A stretch of DNA of 64,000 nt from a phage, in assembly GCA_014685065.1 (NCBI GenBank), contig GCA_014685065.1_4092.1. The stretch is one strand, 5' to 3'. The notes under the pieces are model-generated. The model did no database searches. It was given only the letters and a program-made list of their open reading frames with translations, and was not told the origin of the DNA. Positions 2,645 through 57,698 of this stretch are shown one piece after another; position 1 is the stretch's first letter, and each line of letters starts with the position of its first letter. A program made the position numbers and the translations under genes.

Positions 2645-3042
2645 TGATTAAAGATTTAGATTTTTCAAATTTAGAGATCATCAGTGCAGTGAAGAATATT
2701 ACTGATATGGATGATGAAAAAGGTGTAATGGTAACTATCACTTTCGTAAAGGAAGAGGATAGCTATAAGCATCTTACTGGAATTGAAGAACTAATTCATA
2801 AAACCAATCTTGAGAATGATGGTAAACTCATCAAGCTTCAGGCTTCATATACGCAAAAAACGTCAAATTTTATAGACCTAAATAATGTAGTCAAGGTGGT
2901 ATACAATCATCCTGATCACACATATAGGAACACGACAAGAAATGAAAATGTTGCTAACGATTCGAATATTATCGAAGATGTTGAATTCATAAACACAATT
3001 TTTGATCGTTGTTCTAAGGATTTAAAAAAAGTATACATGTAA
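2644..3042 (+). CDS. hypothetical protein
   Basis: ORF, TAATG overlap start. Confidence 0.5.
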   Translation: MIKDLDFSNLEIISAVKNITDMDDEKGVMVTITFVKEEDSYKHLTGIEELIHKTNLENDGKLIKLQASYTQKTSNFIDLNNVVKVVYNHPDHTYRNTTRNENVANDSNIIEDVEFINTIFDRCSKDLKKVYM

Positions 3043-3043
3043 T

Positions 3044-3071
3044 GGGACATTATATGTTCCAATGATATAAT
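3044..3071 (+). promoter_or_regulatory. sigma70-type promoter GGGACA-N16-TGaTATAAT
   Basis: GGGACA 3044-3049, TATAAT 3066-3071 with TG extended -10; drives ORF-free region. Confidence 0.55.
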
Positions 3072-28834: not shown

Positions 28835-29230
28835 ATGCAATATAATTATCGTGAACTAGTTGAAGCGTTAGACGAAATTACCGGAAGAGATGAAGACGAA
28901 AGTTTTTCAGTTGAAGTTGAATCCGATGTTGTAGCAGTTGATGTTCTTAAGGATATTACCAAATGTCTTATTAACATTGTTGATAAGATTAAATCTGGTG
29001 AAGACCAAAAAGAAATTGTAGATAAACTACAAAAAGCCTGTGACATTTTGTCTGATATTCGATATAATGATGAAAGTACTGAAGTTGCTGATGACGAAGT
29101 GTTGGAAGCCATTGCAGGTTGTTTTGGTACTGAAGGTATGGGACCAACAATTGACAAAGAAGGTGTACAACACTATAATGAACCTGGTGCACCATCTTAT
29201 GCTGCACGTCAAGGTTTTGTTGGAGACTAA
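28835..29230 (+). CDS. hypothetical acidic protein
   Basis: ORF, AGGAG RBS. Confidence 0.45.
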   Translation: MQYNYRELVEALDEITGRDEDESFSVEVESDVVAVDVLKDITKCLINIVDKIKSGEDQKEIVDKLQKACDILSDIRYNDESTEVADDEVLEAIAGCFGTEGMGPTIDKEGVQHYNEPGAPSYAARQGFVGD

Positions 29231-29233
29231 TAT

Positions 29234-29614
29234 ATGTTTCCAGAACCATCACATAACAGTACTGAATATCAAAATAATTTACTTTCCAAAGTTAGGGAAG
29301 TACATGAATCAGATTCAGAAATAACAGACCGTATGCTTCTGATGTCAATTTTTGAAAATTTCAGAACTGGCGGTGGTTTACGTCTTAGTAAGTTTGGGTA
29401 TGGAATTTGTAAAGAAAATAATCTTTATGAATTTACAAAAATCCCCTTGCAAAGAGAATTTAAAAGTTCTATAATGTTTACATCACTTGACAGAATATGT
29501 ACTTCACCTTACTATGTTGAAGGTCAGTACATATATCTGACAGATGCAATGATAATAACTGAATTAACATTGTGTTGTGATGATTTTAAACAGTTATTTT
29601 CTATTCATATGTAA
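29234..29614 (+). CDS. hypothetical protein
   Basis: ORF, GGAG RBS. Confidence 0.45.
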   Translation: MFPEPSHNSTEYQNNLLSKVREVHESDSEITDRMLLMSIFENFRTGGGLRLSKFGYGICKENNLYEFTKIPLQREFKSSIMFTSLDRICTSPYYVEGQYIYLTDAMIITELTLCCDDFKQLFSIHM

Positions 29615-29637
29615 GAAAAATGAATTAAAAATAAATG

Positions 29638-29665
29638 TTGACAAGATAGAATGATGTGATATAAT
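29638..29665 (+). promoter_or_regulatory. sigma70-type promoter TTGACA-N16-TGaTATAAT (P1 of tandem pair)
   Basis: TTGACA 29638-29643, TATAAT 29660-29665. Confidence 0.6.
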
Positions 29666-29732
29666 AAGCATCAGACATAAAGTTTTCAAGCGTCACAAGA
29701 TGTGAGTTTGAAAAAAAAAGAAAAAAAGTGAT

Positions 29733-29760
29733 TGACAAGTTGAAACGATGTGATATAATG
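29733..29760 (+). promoter_or_regulatory. sigma70-type promoter TTGACA-N16-TGaTATAAT (P2 of tandem pair)
   Basis: TTGACA 29733-29738, TATAAT 29755-29760; near-duplicate of P1. Confidence 0.6.
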
Positions 29761-29928
29761 TTCACATCAAGACAGCAAAGAGATTTACCTTTTAAACACA
29801 CGGATGATTCATGAAGTAACAAAGGAACTGATAAGTTAAATTATTTTAACACAGTTCCTTTACTTTTGCCCACGGATTGGCTATAATAGAAACTTAAACG
29901 ATTTTATCCAACAAAAGGAAATATATAC

Positions 29929-31254
29929 ATGACTACTCAAAACGATATCCTGAACGTTAAACTGACTCCAAAGAAAGCTAAAGAAGCAATGGCACTGGCT
30001 GACATGATTCAAGATAGCCTGATGATTTGGGGTAGCCCAGGTATCGGTAAGTCTGCTATCGCTCGTCAATATGCTGATGAAAATTACCCACTGCGTAAAG
30101 ATAACGTAGCTAAAATCGAGTTCATGAAACAACAAATCGAAGCTGACCCTGAAAATGCTGATCAGCTACGCCGTGAACTGGCTGCATTTGAAGCAAAACT
30201 AATCGACCAAGATACTAACTTTATCGATTTCCGTTTGTCTCAAATTGAACCAAGTGACCTTCGCGGTATCCCTGTACCAGAGAAGCTTTTCCGTAAAACT
30301 GACGGTTCTCTTCTCAAAGAATCTGAGCTTGCTGAAGCAAAAGATTATGTGGCTGAAACTGCTGTAGTATGGGCTGCACCTAAAGTACTGAAATTGTCCG
30401 AAGATTGGAAAGGTGTTATTCTGTTTGACGAAATTAACTCTGCAATGCCTATTGTTCAGGCAGCGTCTTATCAGCTAATCCTCGACCGTTGTGTTGGTGA
30501 GATGAAGCTACCTAAGACTGCACTGATTCTTGCAGCAGGTAACCGTGAAACTGATGGCGGTGTAACGTTCTCTCTTGCTACACCACTGCGTGACCGTATG
30601 ACTCACATTGAGATGATTCCTTATCATCAAGATTGGATTAACGATTATGCGATTGCAAAACGTTTGAACCCAGCAACTGTTGCGTTCATCAACAACACTG
30701 GTTCTAAGTACTTTAACACACTTAGCCCACAAGATCCTTCTCACAGCGGTGGTACTTCTCCACGTTCATGGGAAGCAGTAGCACGCTACGAAGATCTCAA
30801 GAAAAATAAGACAATTGATAAAGAAGTGTTCCGTGCAATGATTGCTGGTCGTGTTGGTGAAGGTGTTGCGACTGAATACATTGAGTACGTTGAGAACGTT
30901 GCTAAACTACCAGATACTATGTCTATTCTGTCTGGTGAAATCAAAGAAATCGACGCAACGCTGGATATTTCTGCGAACTACTTTATCACTCTGAACTTGG
31001 TTTATAAAATTATCGACCTGTTCAATGAGAAGCAAGAACAACGTCTACCAGTGGAAGAATGGGGTAAACTGTGTAACAACTTCATCACCTTCCTAGACCA
31101 TAACTTCTCTGCAACTCAAGCAGAACTGGCAGTACTGGCAATTCGTACCATCACGCTTCATAAGGTTGCGATTTCCATTAAAGATGTACCAGCGTTTAAA
31201 GATTTCATCGCTAAGTACTCTGAACTTGTACGTAAAGCACGCTCTCTTGGCTAA
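29929..31254 (+). CDS. MoxR/RavA-like AAA+ ATPase
   Basis: Walker A GSPGIGKS, Walker B ILFDEIN, AAGNRE sensor region; strong CTG/CGT/GGT codon bias. Confidence 0.7.
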   Translation: MTTQNDILNVKLTPKKAKEAMALADMIQDSLMIWGSPGIGKSAIARQYADENYPLRKDNVAKIEFMKQQIEADPENADQLRRELAAFEAKLIDQDTNFIDFRLSQIEPSDLRGIPVPEKLFRKTDGSLLKESELAEAKDYVAETAVVWAAPKVLKLSEDWKGVILFDEINSAMPIVQAASYQLILDRCVGEMKLPKTALILAAGNRETDGGVTFSLATPLRDRMTHIEMIPYHQDWINDYAIAKRLNPATVAFINNTGSKYFNTLSPQDPSHSGGTSPRSWEAVARYEDLKKNKTIDKEVFRAMIAGRVGEGVATEYIEYVENVAKLPDTMSILSGEIKEIDATLDISANYFITLNLVYKIIDLFNEKQEQRLPVEEWGKLCNNFITFLDHNFSATQAELAVLAIRTITLHKVAISIKDVPAFKDFIAKYSELVRKARSLG

Positions 31255-31274
31255 TTAACAAAGAGTTGTTGACA

Positions 31275-31306
31275 AGAAGGATGCCTAATGGTATCCTTCT
31301 TTTATC
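31275..31306 (+). terminator. intercistronic hairpin plus short T tract (attenuating terminator)
   Basis: 11-bp stem AGAAGGATGCC / GGTATCCTTCT then TTTTAT between the two cassette genes. Confidence 0.5.
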
Positions 31307-31328
31307 TTAACTAAACGAGGAAATATAC

Positions 31329-32753
31329 ATGTCAGATAACAAATCTACTTCCAGATTTAATGAAGTATCTCCGGCACTCCAGAAAGAATGTCAAGAACGT
31401 CTGGTTCTGGCTCGTACATCTTTGATGTTAACTGCACCATTCTTTGGTGTACTCGCTTCACGTTTACGTCCAGTTCCTAATAATACATGGTGTCGTACTC
31501 TAGCAGTGGATGGTAAACATCTATTCTACAACGTAGAATTTGTAATGGGTATTCAAGACCCATCTAAAAAGAAAGAATATGAAGAAGCTATTCGTGAAAA
31601 GCACCCTGAAGTTACAGACGAACAATTAAAAGAAATGACTGAAGGTTTGACTGATGAAAACCTTGTTGCAGTAATTTGTCATGAAATCCTACACTGTGCT
31701 TACGATCACTTCCTTCGTCGTGGTATGCGTGATCCACAACGTTATAACCGTGCAGCGGATTATGCCATTAACCAAATCATCGTTCGTGAGAAAATTGGAA
31801 AAATCCAAAGTTCATGGTTGTATGATAAAAAATATGAAGGTATGACCGCAGAAGAGATTTACATTCTTCTTGAAGAAGAAGAAGAAAAGCAAGATGGTGA
31901 AGGACAAGGACAACCACAAAGCGGTGGTGGTGAAGGTGAAGGTAAAAATCGTGGAACTTTTGGTGATATTAAAGATGGTAAGGGTAAACCAAAAGGTACT
32001 ACAATTGACCAACATGACGTTCCACAAGAAGGTCAAGAAGGTGGTTCTAGTGAACAACAAAAACGCGATTATATGGATGATTTCAAAACAGCAATGATGA
32101 ATGCTGCACGTGCAGGTGGTACACCAGCAGAAATCGCTCGTATGATTAACAACTTCAAAGAACCAAAGATTGACTGGCGTTCAAAACTTCAACGTACTCT
32201 TCGTAGTTGGTTGAAGTCTGATGCAACTTATCAAAATCCAAATCGCCGTTCATGGGGTGCTGGTTTTGGTTCTAATGGTTCATTCTATGGTAATCCAATT
32301 TACCCAGGGATGAAACCAGATGATGATATTGATATTGCGATTGCACTAGATGCTTCTGGGTCTATTTCTGAAGATATGCTTCGTGATTTCATTAGTGAAG
32401 TTCTTGGCATCACTAAACAATTCAAACAGTTTAAGATTCGTATCATGACTTTTGATACTGAAGTTTATACTGTAAAGGATTACAAAACTGGCGAAGAACG
32501 TAAGATTCTGGAATATCCAGTAAAAGGTGGTGGTGGTACTGACTTTGAAGCAGTATGGGTTCATATGAAGAACGACAACTACAAGCCTAAACAGCTTGTA
32601 ATGTTTACTGATGGTGAACCGTGGCAGTCATGGGGTGATCCAAACTACTGTAAAACATTGTTCGTGATTCACAGTAACCCAAATAAAGTTGCACCATTTG
32701 GTGAGACTGTACACTACGAATATGAAGCTGATAAAAAGCGTCAACGTAGTTAA
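31329..32753 (+). CDS. vWA (MIDAS) domain protein with N-terminal HExxH metallopeptidase-like motif
   Basis: HEILH at N-terminal third; DASGS ... TDGE MIDAS residues in C-terminal half; Gly/Glu-rich linker. Confidence 0.65.
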   Translation: MSDNKSTSRFNEVSPALQKECQERLVLARTSLMLTAPFFGVLASRLRPVPNNTWCRTLAVDGKHLFYNVEFVMGIQDPSKKKEYEEAIREKHPEVTDEQLKEMTEGLTDENLVAVICHEILHCAYDHFLRRGMRDPQRYNRAADYAINQIIVREKIGKIQSSWLYDKKYEGMTAEEIYILLEEEEEKQDGEGQGQPQSGGGEGEGKNRGTFGDIKDGKGKPKGTTIDQHDVPQEGQEGGSSEQQKRDYMDDFKTAMMNAARAGGTPAEIARMINNFKEPKIDWRSKLQRTLRSWLKSDATYQNPNRRSWGAGFGSNGSFYGNPIYPGMKPDDDIDIAIALDASGSISEDMLRDFISEVLGITKQFKQFKIRIMTFDTEVYTVKDYKTGEERKILEYPVKGGGGTDFEAVWVHMKNDNYKPKQLVMFTDGEPWQSWGDPNYCKTLFVIHSNPNKVAPFGETVHYEYEADKKRQRS

Positions 32754-32765
32754 GTACTAAATAAT

Positions 32766-32796
32766 GAGAACGGAATTTTCCGTTCTCTTCTTTTAT
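32766..32796 (+). terminator. intrinsic terminator
   Basis: GAGAACGG aatttt CCGTTCTC then TTCTTTTAT. Confidence 0.65.
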
Positions 32797-32800
32797 AAGT

Positions 32801-32828
32801 GGGACAACTTATAAAAATATGATATAAT
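32801..32828 (+). promoter_or_regulatory. sigma70-type promoter GGGACA-N16-TGaTATAAT
   Basis: same GTGGGACAA -35 context as promoters at 3044 and 13790. Confidence 0.5.
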
Positions 32829-32862
32829 AGTTAATGTACCAATATACATGGAGAGTATTAAA

Positions 32863-33108
32863 ATGGAACAAGAAAATAATCAAATTCAACTAACCCTTCT
32901 AGACCTAATCAATGCTGCAAAAATCATGGAAGCTGCTGTTGCACGAAACACCTTTAAAGTTGAAGAACTCGTTGAGGTTGCTCCAGTTGTATCTAAATTT
33001 GTTTCTTTTGCAAATGTAGCTCTTGAAGATATTAAAGCACAAGAAGATGCAGCTAAAGAAGAAGCTGAATCACAAGATAGTGAAACTCAAGAAGATAAAG
33101 GAGAATAA
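32863..33108 (+). CDS. small acidic protein
   Basis: ORF, GAGAG RBS. Confidence 0.45.
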   Translation: MEQENNQIQLTLLDLINAAKIMEAAVARNTFKVEELVEVAPVVSKFVSFANVALEDIKAQEDAAKEEAESQDSETQEDKGE

Positions 33109-33770: not shown

Positions 33771-34364
33771 ATGAAAAAGAATGAATTAGATGAAGCAATA
33801 AAAGGTTTATCTAATGTATGTTTTAGTGGCGGGGCAGCAGGTGCTGACCGCCTTTTTTCTATCTATGCAAAAAATAATGGATTTGAAGTTATTAATTTTT
33901 CATTCAAAGGTCATGAGCATAGTGTAGATGAAAGTACTATATTAGAAATACCATCCAATATTCTATCTGATATTTCTATATTAAATCAACTAAACATTGC
34001 ATGTTACTCGTTACAGCGAAAAGTACCGAAGCCTGGTTCTTATGTTTACAACTTACTTGCAAGGAATAGTTATCAGATACTTAATACAGAAAGAATATAT
34101 TGTATTGCAAATATCACATCACCAACTAAGGTAAGTGGTGGTACTGCATGGGCAGTACAGATGTATATGGATTCAGTTGAAAATCCTGAAATTTATTGTT
34201 ATGATATGAATTCACGTTCAGTATTTTATTTCGATACAGTACTGAAAGAGTTCACACAAACATTCGTCGTTCCAGCACCACATGGTAACTGGACTGGTAT
34301 TGGTTCACGCAATGCCACCGAAAAACATATGGAACATTTTATTACATTTTTCAAGGAAGAATAA
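33771..34364 (+). CDS. SLOG/DprA-like Rossmann-fold protein (SGGAAGAD motif), putative nucleotide-binding
   Basis: VCFSGGAAGADRLFS glycine-rich loop after a beta strand. Confidence 0.3.
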   Translation: MKKNELDEAIKGLSNVCFSGGAAGADRLFSIYAKNNGFEVINFSFKGHEHSVDESTILEIPSNILSDISILNQLNIACYSLQRKVPKPGSYVYNLLARNSYQILNTERIYCIANITSPTKVSGGTAWAVQMYMDSVENPEIYCYDMNSRSVFYFDTVLKEFTQTFVVPAPHGNWTGIGSRNATEKHMEHFITFFKEE

Positions 34365-35293
34365 TGAAACAACTACAAGAACTATATCAAAAAATTCTAG
34401 ATGAAGGCGTAGAAAGCGTTGACCGTACTGGTGTTGGGACAATCAAACTTATCGGTCAACAAATGCGTTTCGACCTTAACGATGGTTTCCCAGCAGTGAC
34501 GACAAAACGTCTAGCTTGGAAAGCAATGACTTCAGAATTACTATGGTTTATTGAAGGTTCCCATGATGAGCGTCGCCTTTGTGAAATTTTGCATGGAACT
34601 CGTGATACCGAAAAGAAAACAATTTGGACAGATAATTACCTAAATCAAGGCGTTGCTCTTGGTTATACTGGTGGTGAATTGGGTCCAGTGTATGGTAAGC
34701 AATGGCGTGAATGGGAAGATTATAAATTTAGTTCCAGTACTGAAGAAATTCAAGAATTAAAAGATAAAGGATACAAAGTTATCGATTATACTGGTTCACA
34801 TGGTGTTGTTATGAAACGTACAACTGACCAATTACAAGAACTAATCAAAGGTATAAAGTCCGATCCATATGGTCGTCGCCACATTCTAAGTGCATGGAAC
34901 GTTGGTGAGCTTGATGATATGACGTTGCCACCTTGTCATAGCTTTGTGCAATTTTGTGTAGTACAAGGGAAACTAAGCTGCATTCTACATCAAAGATCCG
35001 CTGATCTATTTTTGGGAGTTCCATTTAATATCAGTAGTTATTCACTACTAACTCATATGATTGCACAAATTACTGGTTTAGATGTTGGTGAATTTATTTG
35101 GAATGGTGGTGATTGTCACATTTATAAAAACCACGTTGAACAAGTAAAAGAACAACTACAGCGAAAACCTCGTGAATTACCTGAATTGTGGCTTGATCCT
35201 ACAATTACTAATATTGAAGATTTCACAATGGATTCTTTCAAATTAGTGAATTACAACCCAATGCCTACAATTAAAGCACCGATGGCTGTATAA
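34364..35293 (+). CDS. thyA: thymidylate synthase (T4 td-like, uninterrupted)
   Basis: DRTGVGT, TKRLAWK, GPVYGKQWR, SAWNVGEL, PPCH catalytic Cys, near-colinear with ThyA/T4 Td. Confidence 0.9.
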   Translation: MKQLQELYQKILDEGVESVDRTGVGTIKLIGQQMRFDLNDGFPAVTTKRLAWKAMTSELLWFIEGSHDERRLCEILHGTRDTEKKTIWTDNYLNQGVALGYTGGELGPVYGKQWREWEDYKFSSSTEEIQELKDKGYKVIDYTGSHGVVMKRTTDQLQELIKGIKSDPYGRRHILSAWNVGELDDMTLPPCHSFVQFCVVQGKLSCILHQRSADLFLGVPFNISSYSLLTHMIAQITGLDVGEFIWNGGDCHIYKNHVEQVKEQLQRKPRELPELWLDPTITNIEDFTMDSFKLVNYNPMPTIKAPMAV

Positions 35294-53809: not shown

Positions 53810-55299
53810 TCTGTGTCCTTATGTATGCGATAAACAGTATTAGGTTTAACTGCGTCATGTAATGGAACTTTGTTATCACTATTTACAAACTGTGTAAGTG
53901 CTAAGTCTGCACCTTCCCACGGTTTTCTTCCACCATAATCAAAAATAACCCATGAATTCTTAGTTGCATTGAATTCCCATAACGTAACTGGAGTATAATC
54001 GGTGCGATAGAAATAGTCACCATCTACTGCATCAGTTGGGAACATATTTCCTTCAGGGACTGTACCTCGTGCTGGTGGAATTTTAGGACGATAATCTTGT
54101 TGCGAATCAATATTACCATATACACAATTGGACGTGAATGGTTCATTGACATAAGTTACCTTTGGTTCCCCCCACTTGTCATCATTATACTGATAAATGT
54201 GTGGTTCTTTATAAAAAATACAAAAATCTTCCACATCTTCTGGTGGAACATCACTGGTAGTATATTCTACATCACAATTTAACCATTTTTTAGCACTTTT
54301 ATCATATTGATACAACGTATAACCTGTCACATCTGCGTCATTTTCTTTAAAGAAGAAGTCACCATCCATTGGTTTTCTGGGAAAGATGGTTCCACGCTTG
54401 ACTTCCACAGAAATCCATGTATCATTAACAAACTCTTTGAGTACTGGGTATGTTTTTTTCAAAAAATACATTCCATCGGCAGGTTCTTCTGGAAAATCAT
54501 AACCGTTAAGCATATATTTTGATAAATCTACTGTATCAGGTCGATCATCATACAAATGTTCATTTGTATAATGAATATAGGGTACTTCATCATCAGCTTG
54601 CATGATGATACGGTTCATGATATCCATTTCATTGCCATAGTTACTGTTTTCCGACGAACCATCATCGGTATTTCCATTACCATTATTAGGGTCATCTGGA
54701 TTATCAGGATAATTATTGTTACCGAGTAAATCGGAGTACTCAGGTGAGTCGGTTAGCGGTTTAACTCTAAGTTTATAAATGTGATGTTGCCACGTAACCG
54801 AGTATCCCTCAGATGTACGAAATGCATCTTGGACGACATAGAAGCGGTTTAGACCTGTATCTTTACCCAATACATCAAAATCACGTAAATTTGGTAGTTC
54901 TATCACATCCCCTGGCATGATTTTTCTACCTAAACGCTGCATCATTGTATTATAATGGATTGTGATGTCCATAGTGTTGAAATTAAAGAACAATCCTGGG
55001 ATTTTCAAGTCTGGAGTTGCTTCTTGAACTTGATAGACACAACTAAGTGTGATAGCTTCAAGGTTGTAGTTTCTGTTTGGTGTGTCACCAAAAATTAAAT
55101 CGCCAATACTTGACACAACTGATCCTGAAGATGTATAATCACCTCCATAGGATAAGTCAGTGTTGTCAGCAACTTGTTTTGGACCGACATATGCATAAAG
55201 CCACATGTCAACTCCACCAATGTTGTATTGTTCAGCAATGGCAGAATCAATGAACTTGTAATCATTGGTTCTCCCTTTTTTCCACATTCTATATGTCAT
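53806..55299 (-). CDS. hypothetical virion protein (baseplate candidate)
   Basis: ORF; ATG 55299 with GGAGA RBS preferred over TTG 55311. Confidence 0.45.
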   Translation of the reverse strand: MTYRMWKKGRTNDYKFIDSAIAEQYNIGGVDMWLYAYVGPKQVADNTDLSYGGDYTSSGSVVSSIGDLIFGDTPNRNYNLEAITLSCVYQVQEATPDLKIPGLFFNFNTMDITIHYNTMMQRLGRKIMPGDVIELPNLRDFDVLGKDTGLNRFYVVQDAFRTSEGYSVTWQHHIYKLRVKPLTDSPEYSDLLGNNNYPDNPDDPNNGNGNTDDGSSENSNYGNEMDIMNRIIMQADDEVPYIHYTNEHLYDDRPDTVDLSKYMLNGYDFPEEPADGMYFLKKTYPVLKEFVNDTWISVEVKRGTIFPRKPMDGDFFFKENDADVTGYTLYQYDKSAKKWLNCDVEYTTSDVPPEDVEDFCIFYKEPHIYQYNDDKWGEPKVTYVNEPFTSNCVYGNIDSQQDYRPKIPPARGTVPEGNMFPTDAVDGDYFYRTDYTPVTLWEFNATKNSWVIFDYGGRKPWEGADLALTQFVNSDNKVPLHDAVKPNTVYRIHKDTE

Positions 55300-55342
55300 G
55301 TTTGTCTCCAAAATAAATCGGGTATATCTTTATTTACCTTGT

Positions 55343-55370
55343 AGACAAACCGTAAGAATGTGATATAATG
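55343..55370 (+). promoter_or_regulatory. sigma70-type promoter TAGACA-N16-TGaTATAAT
   Basis: TATAAT 55365-55370 with TG extension. Confidence 0.55.
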
Positions 55371-55409: not shown

Positions 55410-57698
55410 ATGAATCTTACTCAATTGTTCAAAAAAAGCGACGAACTGGCAACATCTCTAGGTCATACATTCTTGACTATTGACCACGTAAGTGCCACAG
55501 TACTGACTATTGATAGCATCAAGAACGTATTTGAAGATATGAACATTGATGCAGACAAACTGCACAACCGCCTGATGAACTATCTTAAAAATACAACAGT
55601 TCCACATGCACCAAAAAGTGTTAAAGATGAAGACGCGAATCGCACTTCACTTCTAGTGAATCGCGTTGTACATGAGCTTTCTAAAAAATCAGTTATTGAA
55701 CAACTAAAAAGTGATGATTTTTCGATTGATGCATATTTTGTTCTATTCGAATGTCTGTCTTTCCCTAACACAGCACTAGAAGCTGCGTTGAAAGAAGAAG
55801 GTGTTAGCTGTACTGAAGCTGCACGTGCATTGCAAAAACACGTTGAGTCACTTGATAAGGGTATCAACTTACAAAGTATTAATGACGAACCGATTGGAGA
55901 TAAAAAAGTGGCCCAACAGCAGCAATCATCTAAACAAAAAGGTTTGGAAGACTATACAACGAATCTAACTGCTCTTGCAAAAGAAGGCAAACTAGATCCT
56001 ATGATTGGTCGCCAGAAAGAATTGTCTGCATTGATTGAGACTCTTGCTCGCAAAACCAAAAAGAATGCTATTCTTACTGGTGAAGCTGGTGTAGGTAAAA
56101 CACAAATCATCGACGGTCTTGCACAAGCTATTGCTGACGGCAACGTACCTGAACACCTGAAAGACGTTGAAATTCTTTCACTAAATGTTGGTGCATTGAC
56201 TGCTGGTACTAAGTATCGTGGTGAGTTTGAAGAACGCATCGACAATTTGCTAAAAGAACTAAAGAAACGTGAAAATACTATTGTTTTCATTGATGAAATT
56301 CATATTATGGTTGGGGCTGGTTCCGCAAGTAATGGTTCTATGGACATGAGCAATATGCTTAAGCCAGCACTTTCACGTGGTGAGATTCGTGTAATTGGTG
56401 CAACAACATATGATGAATATCGTAAAAATATCGAGAAAGATAGTGCATTAACTCGTCGTTTTATGAAAATTGATGTAGTTGAGCCGTCAATTGATGAAAC
56501 TCGTGCAATTGTTAATGGTTTGAAACCAACTTATGAAAAATTCCATAATGTTGAGTTCACAACTGATGCAATGGATGCTGTAATTTCTCTCAGTGATAAA
56601 TTCCTGAAGAATAAGCACTTCCCAGATAAAGCAATTGATCTAATGGACGCTGCTGCTGCAAAAGTTCGTTCACGTGACAACAATAGTAAGCTTATTACTG
56701 CCAATTTGATTCAAGAAGTTGTTGCTGGTATTGCCAATTTGGATATCAACGTGGTTGCATGTACTGAAAGTGATCGTATGCGTAATCTACCAGATGCACT
56801 ACGCTCACGTGTATACGGTCAAGAGGAAGCTATTCAAAAATTAGTTGATAACGTGATGGTAGCTCGTGCAGGACTGCGTGACAAATCTAGTGTTCAGGGT
56901 GCATTTATGTTTGTTGGACCATCTGGTACTGGTAAAACAGAAATTACCAAAGCATTAGCAGATGCAACTGGTGCGGAACTGATTCGCTTTGATATGTCAG
57001 AATTTTCTCAAGAACATACTGTTTCTAAACTAATTGGTTCACCTCCAGGTTATGTTGGTCATGATTCTGGTAACGGTTTACTGTTGGATAAAATTGAGCA
57101 GTTCCCTAATGCAGTACTGTTACTTGATGAAATTGAAAAAGCAGATCGTAAAGTACTACTAACCTTCCTACAGGTTTTGGATGAAGGTCGCCTGACTGGT
57201 TCACAAGGTAAAACTGTATATTTTAATAACGTAACTGTTATTATGACTACAAACCTTGGTGCGGCAGATTCAACGAAGCGTAGCATTGGTATGAGCGGTA
57301 GTGATACTGCACAAGACAAGGCAATTAAAGCATTCTTGCCACCAGAGTTTATTAACCGTATTGATAGTATCGTTACGTTTAAAGACCTAAGCAGTGAAGC
57401 TATTGACAGCATCATTGATAAGTTCATGGGCAGTTTGAATGAACAAGTCAAAGACCGCAATGTTAAAGTTACATTGACAAAAGCTGCACGTGAATGGCTT
57501 GCGAAAAATGGGGTAAAAGTTGGCATGGGTGCACGTCCAATGAAACGTACCATTGAACAAAACATTCGTGTACCACTAGCTAAAGAAATGTTGTGTGGTT
57601 CACTTGTGAATGGTGGTAACATTACATTTGATGTTATTGATGGTAAAATCGGTATTAAACCGAAACGTACCAAAGCTGTAGATAAAGCACTGGCATAA
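55410..57698 (+). CDS. clpA: ClpA-like two-ring AAA+ unfoldase (ClpA/B N-domain, D1, D2, no ClpB-type middle domain, IGM loop)
   Basis: two Walker A ([16 protein letters not shown]), Walker B ([15 protein letters not shown]), [22 protein letters not shown] tripeptide loop; near-colinear with E. coli ClpA from memory; AGGAG RBS. Confidence 0.85.

Follow-up and report, generated by a model that had tools for sequence, protein, structure and literature searches.

A MoxR-type ATPase and putative peptidase-vWA partner in Rak2-like jumbo phages: a conserved core pair with host-type promoters and a tentative host-directed role

Introduction

A two-gene cassette at positions 29620-32800 of a 64,000-nt phage contig (GenBank assembly GCA_014685065.1, contig GCA_014685065.1_4092.1; the whole stretch is referred to here as the window) raises the question of whether a MoxR-type AAA+ ATPase, together with a partner combining a putative metallopeptidase with a von Willebrand factor A (vWA) domain, helps to build the virion or acts on the infected host. 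A preliminary description had read the cassette as autonomously promoted, highly expressed cargo serving either as an assembly chaperone or in counter-defence. The pair is already known from comparative genomics of jumbo, rV5-like, and N4-like phages. A MoxR AAA+ ATPase and a vWA co-chaperone with an N-terminal metallopeptidase were described in "group 2.2" T4-related jumbo phages (Iyer et al., 2021, Viruses 13:63; PMC7824862), where they were proposed to function in virion assembly and peptidolytic processing by analogy with p618/p892 of Acidianus two-tailed virus (ATV). The novelty implied by the preliminary description therefore falls away, the pair being also annotated in the phage phAPEC6; its observation is confirmed, and its interpretation is partly supported.

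Collectively, consensus host-type sigma-70 promoters, terminators conserved in position at three sites, and codon adaptation suggest that the two genes are expressed early, at a high level, and unequally, and this regulatory picture speaks against the published assembly proposal. Our tentative preference, held at a little under an even chance, is for an early module that is transcribed by the host RNA polymerase and acts mainly on host or other non-structural targets, in takeover or counter-defence, rather than for a dedicated virion-assembly protease. Within the literature searched, only a putative conserved terminator in the leader of the ATPase gene and a possible short RNA had not already been described.

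Results

Over positions 29400-33100, the window shares 98.5% identity with Escherichia phages 121Q, PBECO4, G17, phAPEC6, and others; the lineage is Asteriusvirus, "Rak2-like" jumbo myoviruses of ~350 kb that have been sequenced and annotated before. In phAPEC6 the ATPase is gp265c ("ATPase; MoxR ATPase") and the partner gp264c ("N4 gp25-like protein"). The gene order (structural genes, a small open reading frame (ORF), ATPase, partner, small ORFs, a DprA-like/SLOG gene, and thymidylate synthase, ThyA) is common to Asteriusvirus, Eneladusvirus (BF), Mimasvirus (GAP32), and Salmonella phage 7t3, and it recurs in K64-1, Yen9-04, and metagenomic contigs (to ~40% protein identity) wherever the flank read sufficed; synteny and orthology of the pair also span Alcyoneusvirus. 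The partner starts 74 nt 3' of the ATPase in the window, and the two genes are adjacent in most of the Rak2-like clade, the exceptions being the PA5oct-like Cassandra and Vibrio phage 2.275.O, in which other genes intervene. More distant homologs occur in 686 phage records for the partner and 345 (at E ≤ 1e-20) for the ATPase, including rV5-like, PA5oct-like, Atu_ph07, and N4-like phages (in the last of which the genes are named gp24/gp25). Because synteny is kept throughout the Rak2-like clade and homologs are found in hundreds of phage records, the pair is, as judged by sequence comparison, a vertically inherited core phage module; this contradicts the earlier label of cargo.

In both exceptional genomes, a ~500-aa gene with no Pfam match lies directly 5' of the partner (locus L013 3890-5401 in Vibrio phage 2.275.O; locus L007 1940-3436 in Pseudomonas phage Cassandra, where it is labeled "homing endonuclease" and is set apart from the ATPase by three more small ORFs). 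In these lineages it may represent an additional, third component.

The ATPase (29929-31254, + strand; 441 aa, 49.5 kDa) carries Walker A GSPGIGKS at residues 35-42, Walker B ILFDEIN from residue 164 (D167/E168), and sensor-1 N205. Residue invariance was assessed in homologs down to ~32-42% identity (36 for the ATPase, 37 for the partner), and among these G35, G38, K41, S42, E168, and N205 of the ATPase are invariant. The protein matches PHROG 1297 at E = 2e-107, and a profile of its 36 homologs matches midasin at 5.8e-14. An AlphaFold model (predicted local distance difference test score, pLDDT, of 86) finds its best Foldseek matches in NorQ hexamers and NorQ-NorD VWA complexes (9qh4, 9qh8, 9qhd; E ~1e-6), followed in order by CbbQ2 (6l1q), dynein, McrB, and midasin. 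The model places a helix-2 beta-hairpin insert (strands 114-123/140-149) between beta2 and Walker B and a short pre-sensor-1 beta-hairpin (~188-193) ahead of N205, a segment present in all homologs; on the basis of sequence and model, we assign the protein to the helix-2-insert clade of MoxR-class AAA+ ATPases. Rak2-like ATPases additionally have a clade-specific 42-aa helical-hairpin insert at residues 53-95 and an enlarged helix-2 insert (114-150) of 37 aa, compared with ~15 aa in shorter relatives.

The partner (31329-32753, + strand; 474 aa) consists of an N-terminal DUF2201_N domain, a disordered acidic/Gly linker (~190-237), and a C-terminal vWA domain, with HEILH at 118-122, DASGS at 341, and TDGE at 427. 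Pfam returns DUF2201_N (3.5e-35, 122.4 bits; cut-off 23.2) and the VWA-like DUF2201 (6.9e-21, 75.1 bits; cut-off 26.4), and the protein matches PHROG 1314 at E = 3e-128. The HExxH residues H118, E119, and H122 are invariant in the 37 homologs, as are all five residues of the MIDAS (metal ion-dependent adhesion site; D341, S343, S345, T404, D428), giving a vWA fold with a complete DxSxS...T...D site. The invariance of catalytic and MIDAS residues indicates that the chemistries of both proteins are under selection. In fold searches with the partner, every listed structural match falls on the vWA half, and the N-terminal domain alone gives weak Pfam hints only (PhageMetallopep, 0.008; M48, 0.04); we treat this domain as a putative zincin peptidase. 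The partner profile had no match in the PDB, single-sequence PDB searches gave nothing useful, and neither protein matched in NCBIfam or PADLOC.

Orthologs carry a variety of labels, including "Zn-dependent hydrolase," "anti-sigma factor," and "homing endonuclease." The label "HNH endonuclease," attached to PHROG 1314 and to many GenBank records, was considered and rejected: Pfam reports only DUF2201_N, DUF2201, VWA, and VWA_2, and since no HNH/His-Me finger domain is among these results the label is a propagated mis-annotation.

Both ORFs and all five motifs quoted in the preliminary description were thus found in place, and its identification of a MoxR-like AAA+ protein and an HExxH partner with a vWA/MIDAS domain is supported by profiles, folds, and invariant residues. 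It had also anticipated particular Pfam families, and those of the partner (DUF2201_N and VWA) were recovered; the two named for the ATPase are taken up in the Discussion.

Two promoters precede the ATPase in tandem, as had been proposed. P1 (29638-29665, + strand) and P2 (29732-29759, + strand; one position from the coordinate given earlier, and 94 nt 3' of P1) both have the form TTGACA-N16-TG-n-TATAAT, the sigma-70 consensus with an extended -10, each at 12/12 matches plus TG. The pattern TTGACA-N13-TGNTATAAT has three matches at ≤1 mismatch in the 64-kb window, compared with 0.26 expected, and none of 100 shuffles reached three; P1 and P2 are the only exact matches. Their cores are identical at 24/28 nt, and the surrounding 94-nt units are only ~62% identical despite this, which argues for an old duplication. 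The tandem arrangement is restricted to 121Q-type Asteriusvirus relatives. The initial transcribed sequence after P2, CATCAAGACA, is kept across genera: in K64-1, 7t3, BF, Yen9-04, and GAP32, a single promoter of the extended -10 type is present (TGTGATATAAT or TGGTATAAT after an A-tract), likewise followed by the conserved initial transcribed sequence. On reading the leader, no late-type promoter motif was found. A candidate third promoter, P3 (TTTACT-N17-TATAAT, 10/12 matches; 29859-29887, + strand), carries TGGTATAAT in JNE01 and is weak or absent in 7t3, BF, and GAP32; it might serve as the mRNA promoter of the ATPase, the site itself being uncertain.

Between the P2 start site and the ATG, the leader spans ~162 nt, in agreement with the ~160 nt given before, and as a whole folds better than its shuffles (z = -3.1). 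Its 9-bp hairpin, T0 (29822-29869, + strand, with the stem at 29822-29860, just 5' of P3), is made up of AAGGAACTG, a 21-nt loop, and CAGTTCCTT followed by the T-rich tail TACTTTTGC; it is present in the minimum-free-energy fold and is annotated as an ARNOLD terminator in phage G17. Hairpins of different genomes were compared by an explicit register table, since MAFFT misaligned them because their loop lengths differ. In 11/11 relatives every position of the stem pairs, and the 9 nt that follow contain 5-6 T; two compensatory changes, independent of each other and both double-sided, are seen (A-T to or from C-G, and G-C to or from A-T). In BF, Yen9-04, and GAP32, T0 is compact, with a 10-11 bp stem and a 4-nt loop. 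These sequence features identify T0 as a terminator-like element, with termination in vivo predicted, and it may therefore act as an attenuator or mark where a short RNA ends. The preliminary description missed that the leader hairpin is a conserved, terminator-like element, so that autonomous promotion of the unit is less simple than it had supposed.

The order promoter, terminator, second promoter, ATPase in EJP2 and Vibrio phage 2.275.O shows that the promoter-plus-terminator piece can be separated from the gene. The piece would therefore be an attenuator or else a short RNA gene that can stand apart. A minority possibility is that promoter and hairpin constitute a short RNA gene with a regulatory job of its own, and that the ATPase mRNA starts at another promoter (P3 here; P2 in EJP2 and Vibrio phage 2.275.O). 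The RNA would be ~100 nt long from P2 or ~195 nt from P1 in the window, while in BF and GAP32 it would measure ~55-60 nt. In all relatives examined, one or more extended -10 promoters are followed by a conserved start sequence and then by a hairpin whose tail is T-rich; with its single-stranded, A/U-rich 5' part ahead of a terminator, the layout resembles that of bacterial small RNAs, and the compact terminators of BF, Yen9-04, and GAP32 fit such a gene. However, no promoter is recognizable between the hairpin and the ATPase in 7t3, BF, and GAP32, where read-through (attenuation) would thus be needed, and the 21-nt loop and broken T-tract of the window point to a leaky terminator. Moreover, the leader matches no Rfam family, and the promoter-hairpin element occurs only once in the window.

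In most relatives, T0 is flanked by two A(C/T)GGAT motifs. The first (ACGGATG, 29800-29806, + strand) lies 5' of the hairpin at a position kept in 121Q-type relatives, 7t3, BF, and GAP32, with AAGGAT variants in K64-1 and Yen9-04; the second (29872-29878, + strand) lies within P3. A covarying "GGA-loop mini-hairpin" 3' of T0, of the kind bound by CsrA, was also considered and failed its background control: among GGA sites of the window, 76% have a flanking stem of at least 3 bp and 46% one of at least 4 bp, so that such a hairpin is indistinguishable from chance. In the minimum-free-energy fold of the P2-derived leader, UUUACCUUUU at 29783-29793 pairs with the ribosome-binding region AAAAGGAAAU at 29911-29921, and the first ACGGAUG motif pairs with UUAUCC; a CCUUUU/AAAAGG pair is kept within Asteriusvirus. 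According to this model, the long leader would hide the ribosome-binding site and a transcript from the candidate P3 would not. The initiation contexts of the two genes are nearly alike, with AGGAAATATATACATG at 29916-29931 for the ATPase and AGGAAATATACATG at 31313-31331 for the partner.

Between the two genes lies T1 (31274-31306, + strand), an intrinsic terminator with a 4-nt loop and a T-tail whose hairpin (31274-31301, z = -4.3) has 12 pairs rather than the 11 reported previously. A terminator stands at this position in 10/10 related loci folded, from several genera and metagenomes, and the sequences are unrelated. Since the position is kept despite this turnover, the data support a role of T1 in lowering expression of the partner relative to the ATPase, as the preliminary description had supposed when it made the hairpin set the stoichiometry of the two proteins. 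By analogy with the NorQ-NorD entries, the resulting ratio would suit a motor of six subunits that carries one vWA adaptor. The unit is closed, again as described before, by T2 (32766-32795, + strand), a 9-bp stem (hairpin 32766-32787) with a T-tail that is annotated in G17; a hairpin is found at the T2 position in 6/6 loci compared. A promoter-like site, TTGACA-N17-TATCCT with TG (31269-31297, + strand), overlaps T1, its -35 lying 5' of the stem and its -10 in the 3' arm. It is kept in Asteriusvirus relatives and absent from 7t3, BF, and GAP32, and could be a weak promoter of the partner gene or a product of chance.

Codon usage sets the ATPase apart. Its fraction of Escherichia coli optimal codons (Fop) is 0.632 (z = 2.6), the highest of the 61 window genes, and its orthologs rank first by optimal codons in the 7t3 and BF loci; the major capsid protein has 0.693 and the scaffold protein 0.611. 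CTG accounts for 0.41 of Leu codons in the ATPase compared with 0.05 in the rest of the window (p = 5e-12) and 0.00 in the capsid gene, a difference that fits translation from the host tRNA pool. ATC (0.46 vs. 0.16) and AAC (0.81 vs. 0.34) are likewise enriched over the rest of the window, and the bias extends to TTC and TAC. The preliminary description had listed CTG, CGT, GGT, and ATC; CTG and ATC bear this out, whereas CGT (p = 0.04) and GGT (p = 0.12) are scarcely distinctive. Its expectation of high expression agrees with the resemblance of the ATPase codon profile to that of the major capsid protein. Selection may have favored high translation through use of the host's tRNAs, as would befit an early gene.

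An alternative source of this bias is foreign origin, the pair being a recently acquired accessory system of the mobile vWA-MoxR-VMAP type. The GC content of the ATPase (0.42 vs. 0.35) and its GC at third codon positions (GC3; 0.35 vs. ~0.2) do exceed those of its neighbors, and vWA-MoxR systems are known conflict systems whose vWA protein occasionally carries a fused metallopeptidase as effector (Kaur et al., 2020, eLife 9:e52696; PMC7159879). The MoxR and vWA core is common to those ternary systems and the window pair. Unlike them, however, the window pair is phage-encoded, syntenic, and outside a bacterial defence island, and the locus contains no VMAP third component or effector array, its neighbors being virion proteins, small ORFs, and the DprA-like/SLOG and ThyA genes (PADLOC likewise finds no match). 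Because the bias is shared by the 7t3 and BF orthologs and resembles the capsid profile, we attribute it to selection and reject horizontal transfer as its source; as synteny and orthology hold strictly from Asteriusvirus, Alcyoneusvirus, Eneladusvirus, and Mimasvirus to 7t3 and metagenomic relatives, recent acquisition is very improbable.

Several features of the surrounding sequence complete the picture. The next promoter (GGGACA-N16-TG-n-TATAAT; 32801-32828, + strand) serves a downstream small ORF and marks the 3' boundary of the cassette. It belongs to a recurring variant, TGGGACA-N16-TGATATAAT, in which GGGACA replaces TTGACA and which is also found at 3037-3071 and 13783-13817 (+ strand); the ATPase promoter of 7t3 is of the GGGACA type too, and the variant may represent a clade-specific early or middle promoter class. 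At 32844-32858 (+ strand), ATACATGGAGAGTAT forms a 4-bp hairpin whose loop contains GGAG, the Shine-Dalgarno sequence of the next small ORF (ATG at 32863), and the element ATACATGGAG(A/T)GTAT is kept in EcMJ, JNE01, 7t3, BF, and GAP32. Farther 3' are the DprA-like/SLOG (YspA-related) gene (33771-34364, + strand) and the thymidylate synthase gene (34364-35293, + strand). The third match of the extended -10 pattern (TAGACA-N16-TGTGATATAAT, one mismatch; 55342-55369, + strand) lies just 5' of another AAA+ gene, which encodes a 762-aa Clp-type ATPase (55410-57698, + strand; phAPEC6 gp246c) with an above-average Fop of 0.547; both AAA+ genes among the late structural genes thus have host-type promoters. 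Three further sites match TTGACA-N17/18-TATAAT at 12/12 without TG (103-131, 29151-29179, and 55110-55139, + strand), and that at 29151 lies inside the structural-gene ORF 28835-29230, ~450 nt 5' of P1.

Discussion

The proposal that the pair forms a virion-assembly chaperone and maturation peptidase, folding or assembling and trimming a structural component in the manner of ATV p618/p892, was made explicitly for this phage group (Iyer et al., 2021; PMC7824862). The pair in that study has the same architecture as the one described here, and CBB, a Rak2-like phage, was among the genomes analyzed; the example accessions of that study (ASV44729.1, ASV44728.2) may be direct orthologs of the window pair. 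The cited precedent is a viral MoxR-vWA pair, but p618 (MoxR) and p892 (vWA) have no peptidase domain, belong to an archaeal virus, and act in extracellular tail growth. Assembly is consistent with the location of the pair directly 3' of virion structural genes in the Rak2-like clade, with its retention as a core gene pair across several phage families, and with an ATPase expression signature on par with those of capsid and scaffold proteins.

The promoters point elsewhere. The work of Iyer et al. contains no regulatory analysis, and the consensus host sigma-70 promoters, together with a leader in which no late-type motif was seen, argue against an assembly function. In N4, gp24 and gp25 are middle genes (PMC4193335). 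N4-like gp24 is homologous to the ATPase (28.6% identity, E = 7e-21) and gp25 to the partner over 93% of its length (E = 4e-13), and phAPEC6, K64-1, and 7t3 label their own genes gp24-like or gp25-like. The N4 versions are shorter, having neither the 42-aa helical insert nor the enlargement of the helix-2 insert (the absence having been established for distant relatives), and they sit in a middle/replication module read by N4 RNA polymerase (RNAP) II, in contrast to the sigma-70 promoters here (PMC4193335). Similarly, the ATPase of rV5-like phages lies among rIIA/B, helicase, methylase, and polymerase genes, and in both groups the genes fall in early or replication modules.

Virion proteomes give a mixed answer. 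The ATPase is present in phAPEC6 virion preparations by mass spectrometry (6 peptides, 19% coverage), as assembly would have it, but the partner is absent from the same list, and both proteins are missing from the CBB virion proteome list, which skips the whole interval CBB_215-223. Since the phAPEC6 list also includes thymidylate synthase, abundant soluble proteins seem to carry over. Moreover, the window phage encodes a separate, T4-type prohead protease. With regard to the two outcomes that the preliminary description had regarded as fatal to its own reading, the profile searches did not fail, and the two proteins did not prove to be stoichiometric virion components with a known assembly role.

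A knockout study bears on function most directly. In the rV5-like phage Bas54 (phage MaxBurger), the "MoxR ATPase" gene bas54_0063 (locus tag verified in MZ501093) could be knocked out on K-12 according to a HIDEN-SEQ preprint (bioRxiv 10.1101/2025.11.20.689424), a viability that counts against assembly, and the same gene was specifically required to overcome the predicted defence system DS-28 (bioRxiv 10.1101/2025.11.20.689424). bas54_0063 is a true but distant homolog of the window ATPase (BLASTP E = 6e-33 over 383 aligned columns), and Bas54 likewise carries a DUF2201-type metallopeptidase-vWA gene (bas54_0055), although the two lie 3.6 kb apart on opposite strands and not as an adjacent same-strand pair. 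Taken together, the early-type promoters, the middle-class N4 orthologs, and the DS-28 preprint tilt the balance toward a host-directed or counter-defence function over virion assembly, the main rival, which we consider possible but less likely.

A number of observations weigh against the host-directed module that we tentatively favor. The Bas54 ortholog is distant, at 24% identity; bas54_0140, which is co-required with it, has no homolog outside Vequintavirus; and the vWA partner bas54_0055 was not reported as required for DS-28 (bioRxiv 10.1101/2025.11.20.689424). The detection of the ATPase in phAPEC6 virions counts here as well, as does deep syntenic core conservation beside structural genes, which is unlike typical variable anti-defence genes. 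Because T0 lies between P1/P2 and the ATPase gene, strong promoters do not guarantee high mRNA. Against Pfam AAA the ATPase scores only 21.3 bits, AAA_3 stays below its cut-off (16.6 bits vs. 27), and AAA_5 is not reported. The link to AAA_3 (PF07726) and AAA_5 (PF07728) is only transitive, since these are carried by ~360-aa homologs at ~30% identity while the window ATPase is itself sub-threshold. The zincin fold of the N-terminal domain finds no support from solved structures in the fold searches, and the enzymatic activities of both proteins, as well as the complex between them, are inferred.

If the host-directed module is nevertheless as we picture it, the host RNA polymerase would transcribe the unit early, and the ATPase would assemble as a hexameric ring, by analogy with NorQ-NorD, CbbQ-CbbO, and RavA-ViaA. 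The partner would dock on the ring, its MIDAS site gripping an acidic residue of the target protein; ATP hydrolysis would remodel the target and the fused peptidase would cleave it, with T1 keeping the partner sub-stoichiometric at about one per hexamer. In the cellular NorQ-NorD, CbbQ-CbbO, and RavA-ViaA systems, by contrast, the partners lack an HExxH peptidase domain, metalloenzymes or Rubisco serve as clients, and sequence identity to them is only 11-15%. A more elaborate version, which we regard as speculative and unlikely as a whole, would have a conserved early machine in which MIDAS captures host immune or takeover targets for cleavage, lineage-specific adaptors (for example bas54_0140 in rV5-like phages) choose those targets, and the dose in Rak2-like phages is gated by a leader attenuator or short RNA whose two A(C/U)GGAU motifs are possibly sites for CsrA or another RNA-binding protein.

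The window adds a regulatory picture rather than a new kind of system, and it does so for a conserved gene pair that ranks among the more widespread in large virulent phages. The 2025 report on DS-28 and the rV5-like ATPase makes the role of the pair open to experiment. If the host-directed reading is true, a fusion of MIDAS adaptor and peptidase, powered by a MoxR motor, would represent a distinct viral way to remodel or destroy chosen proteins.

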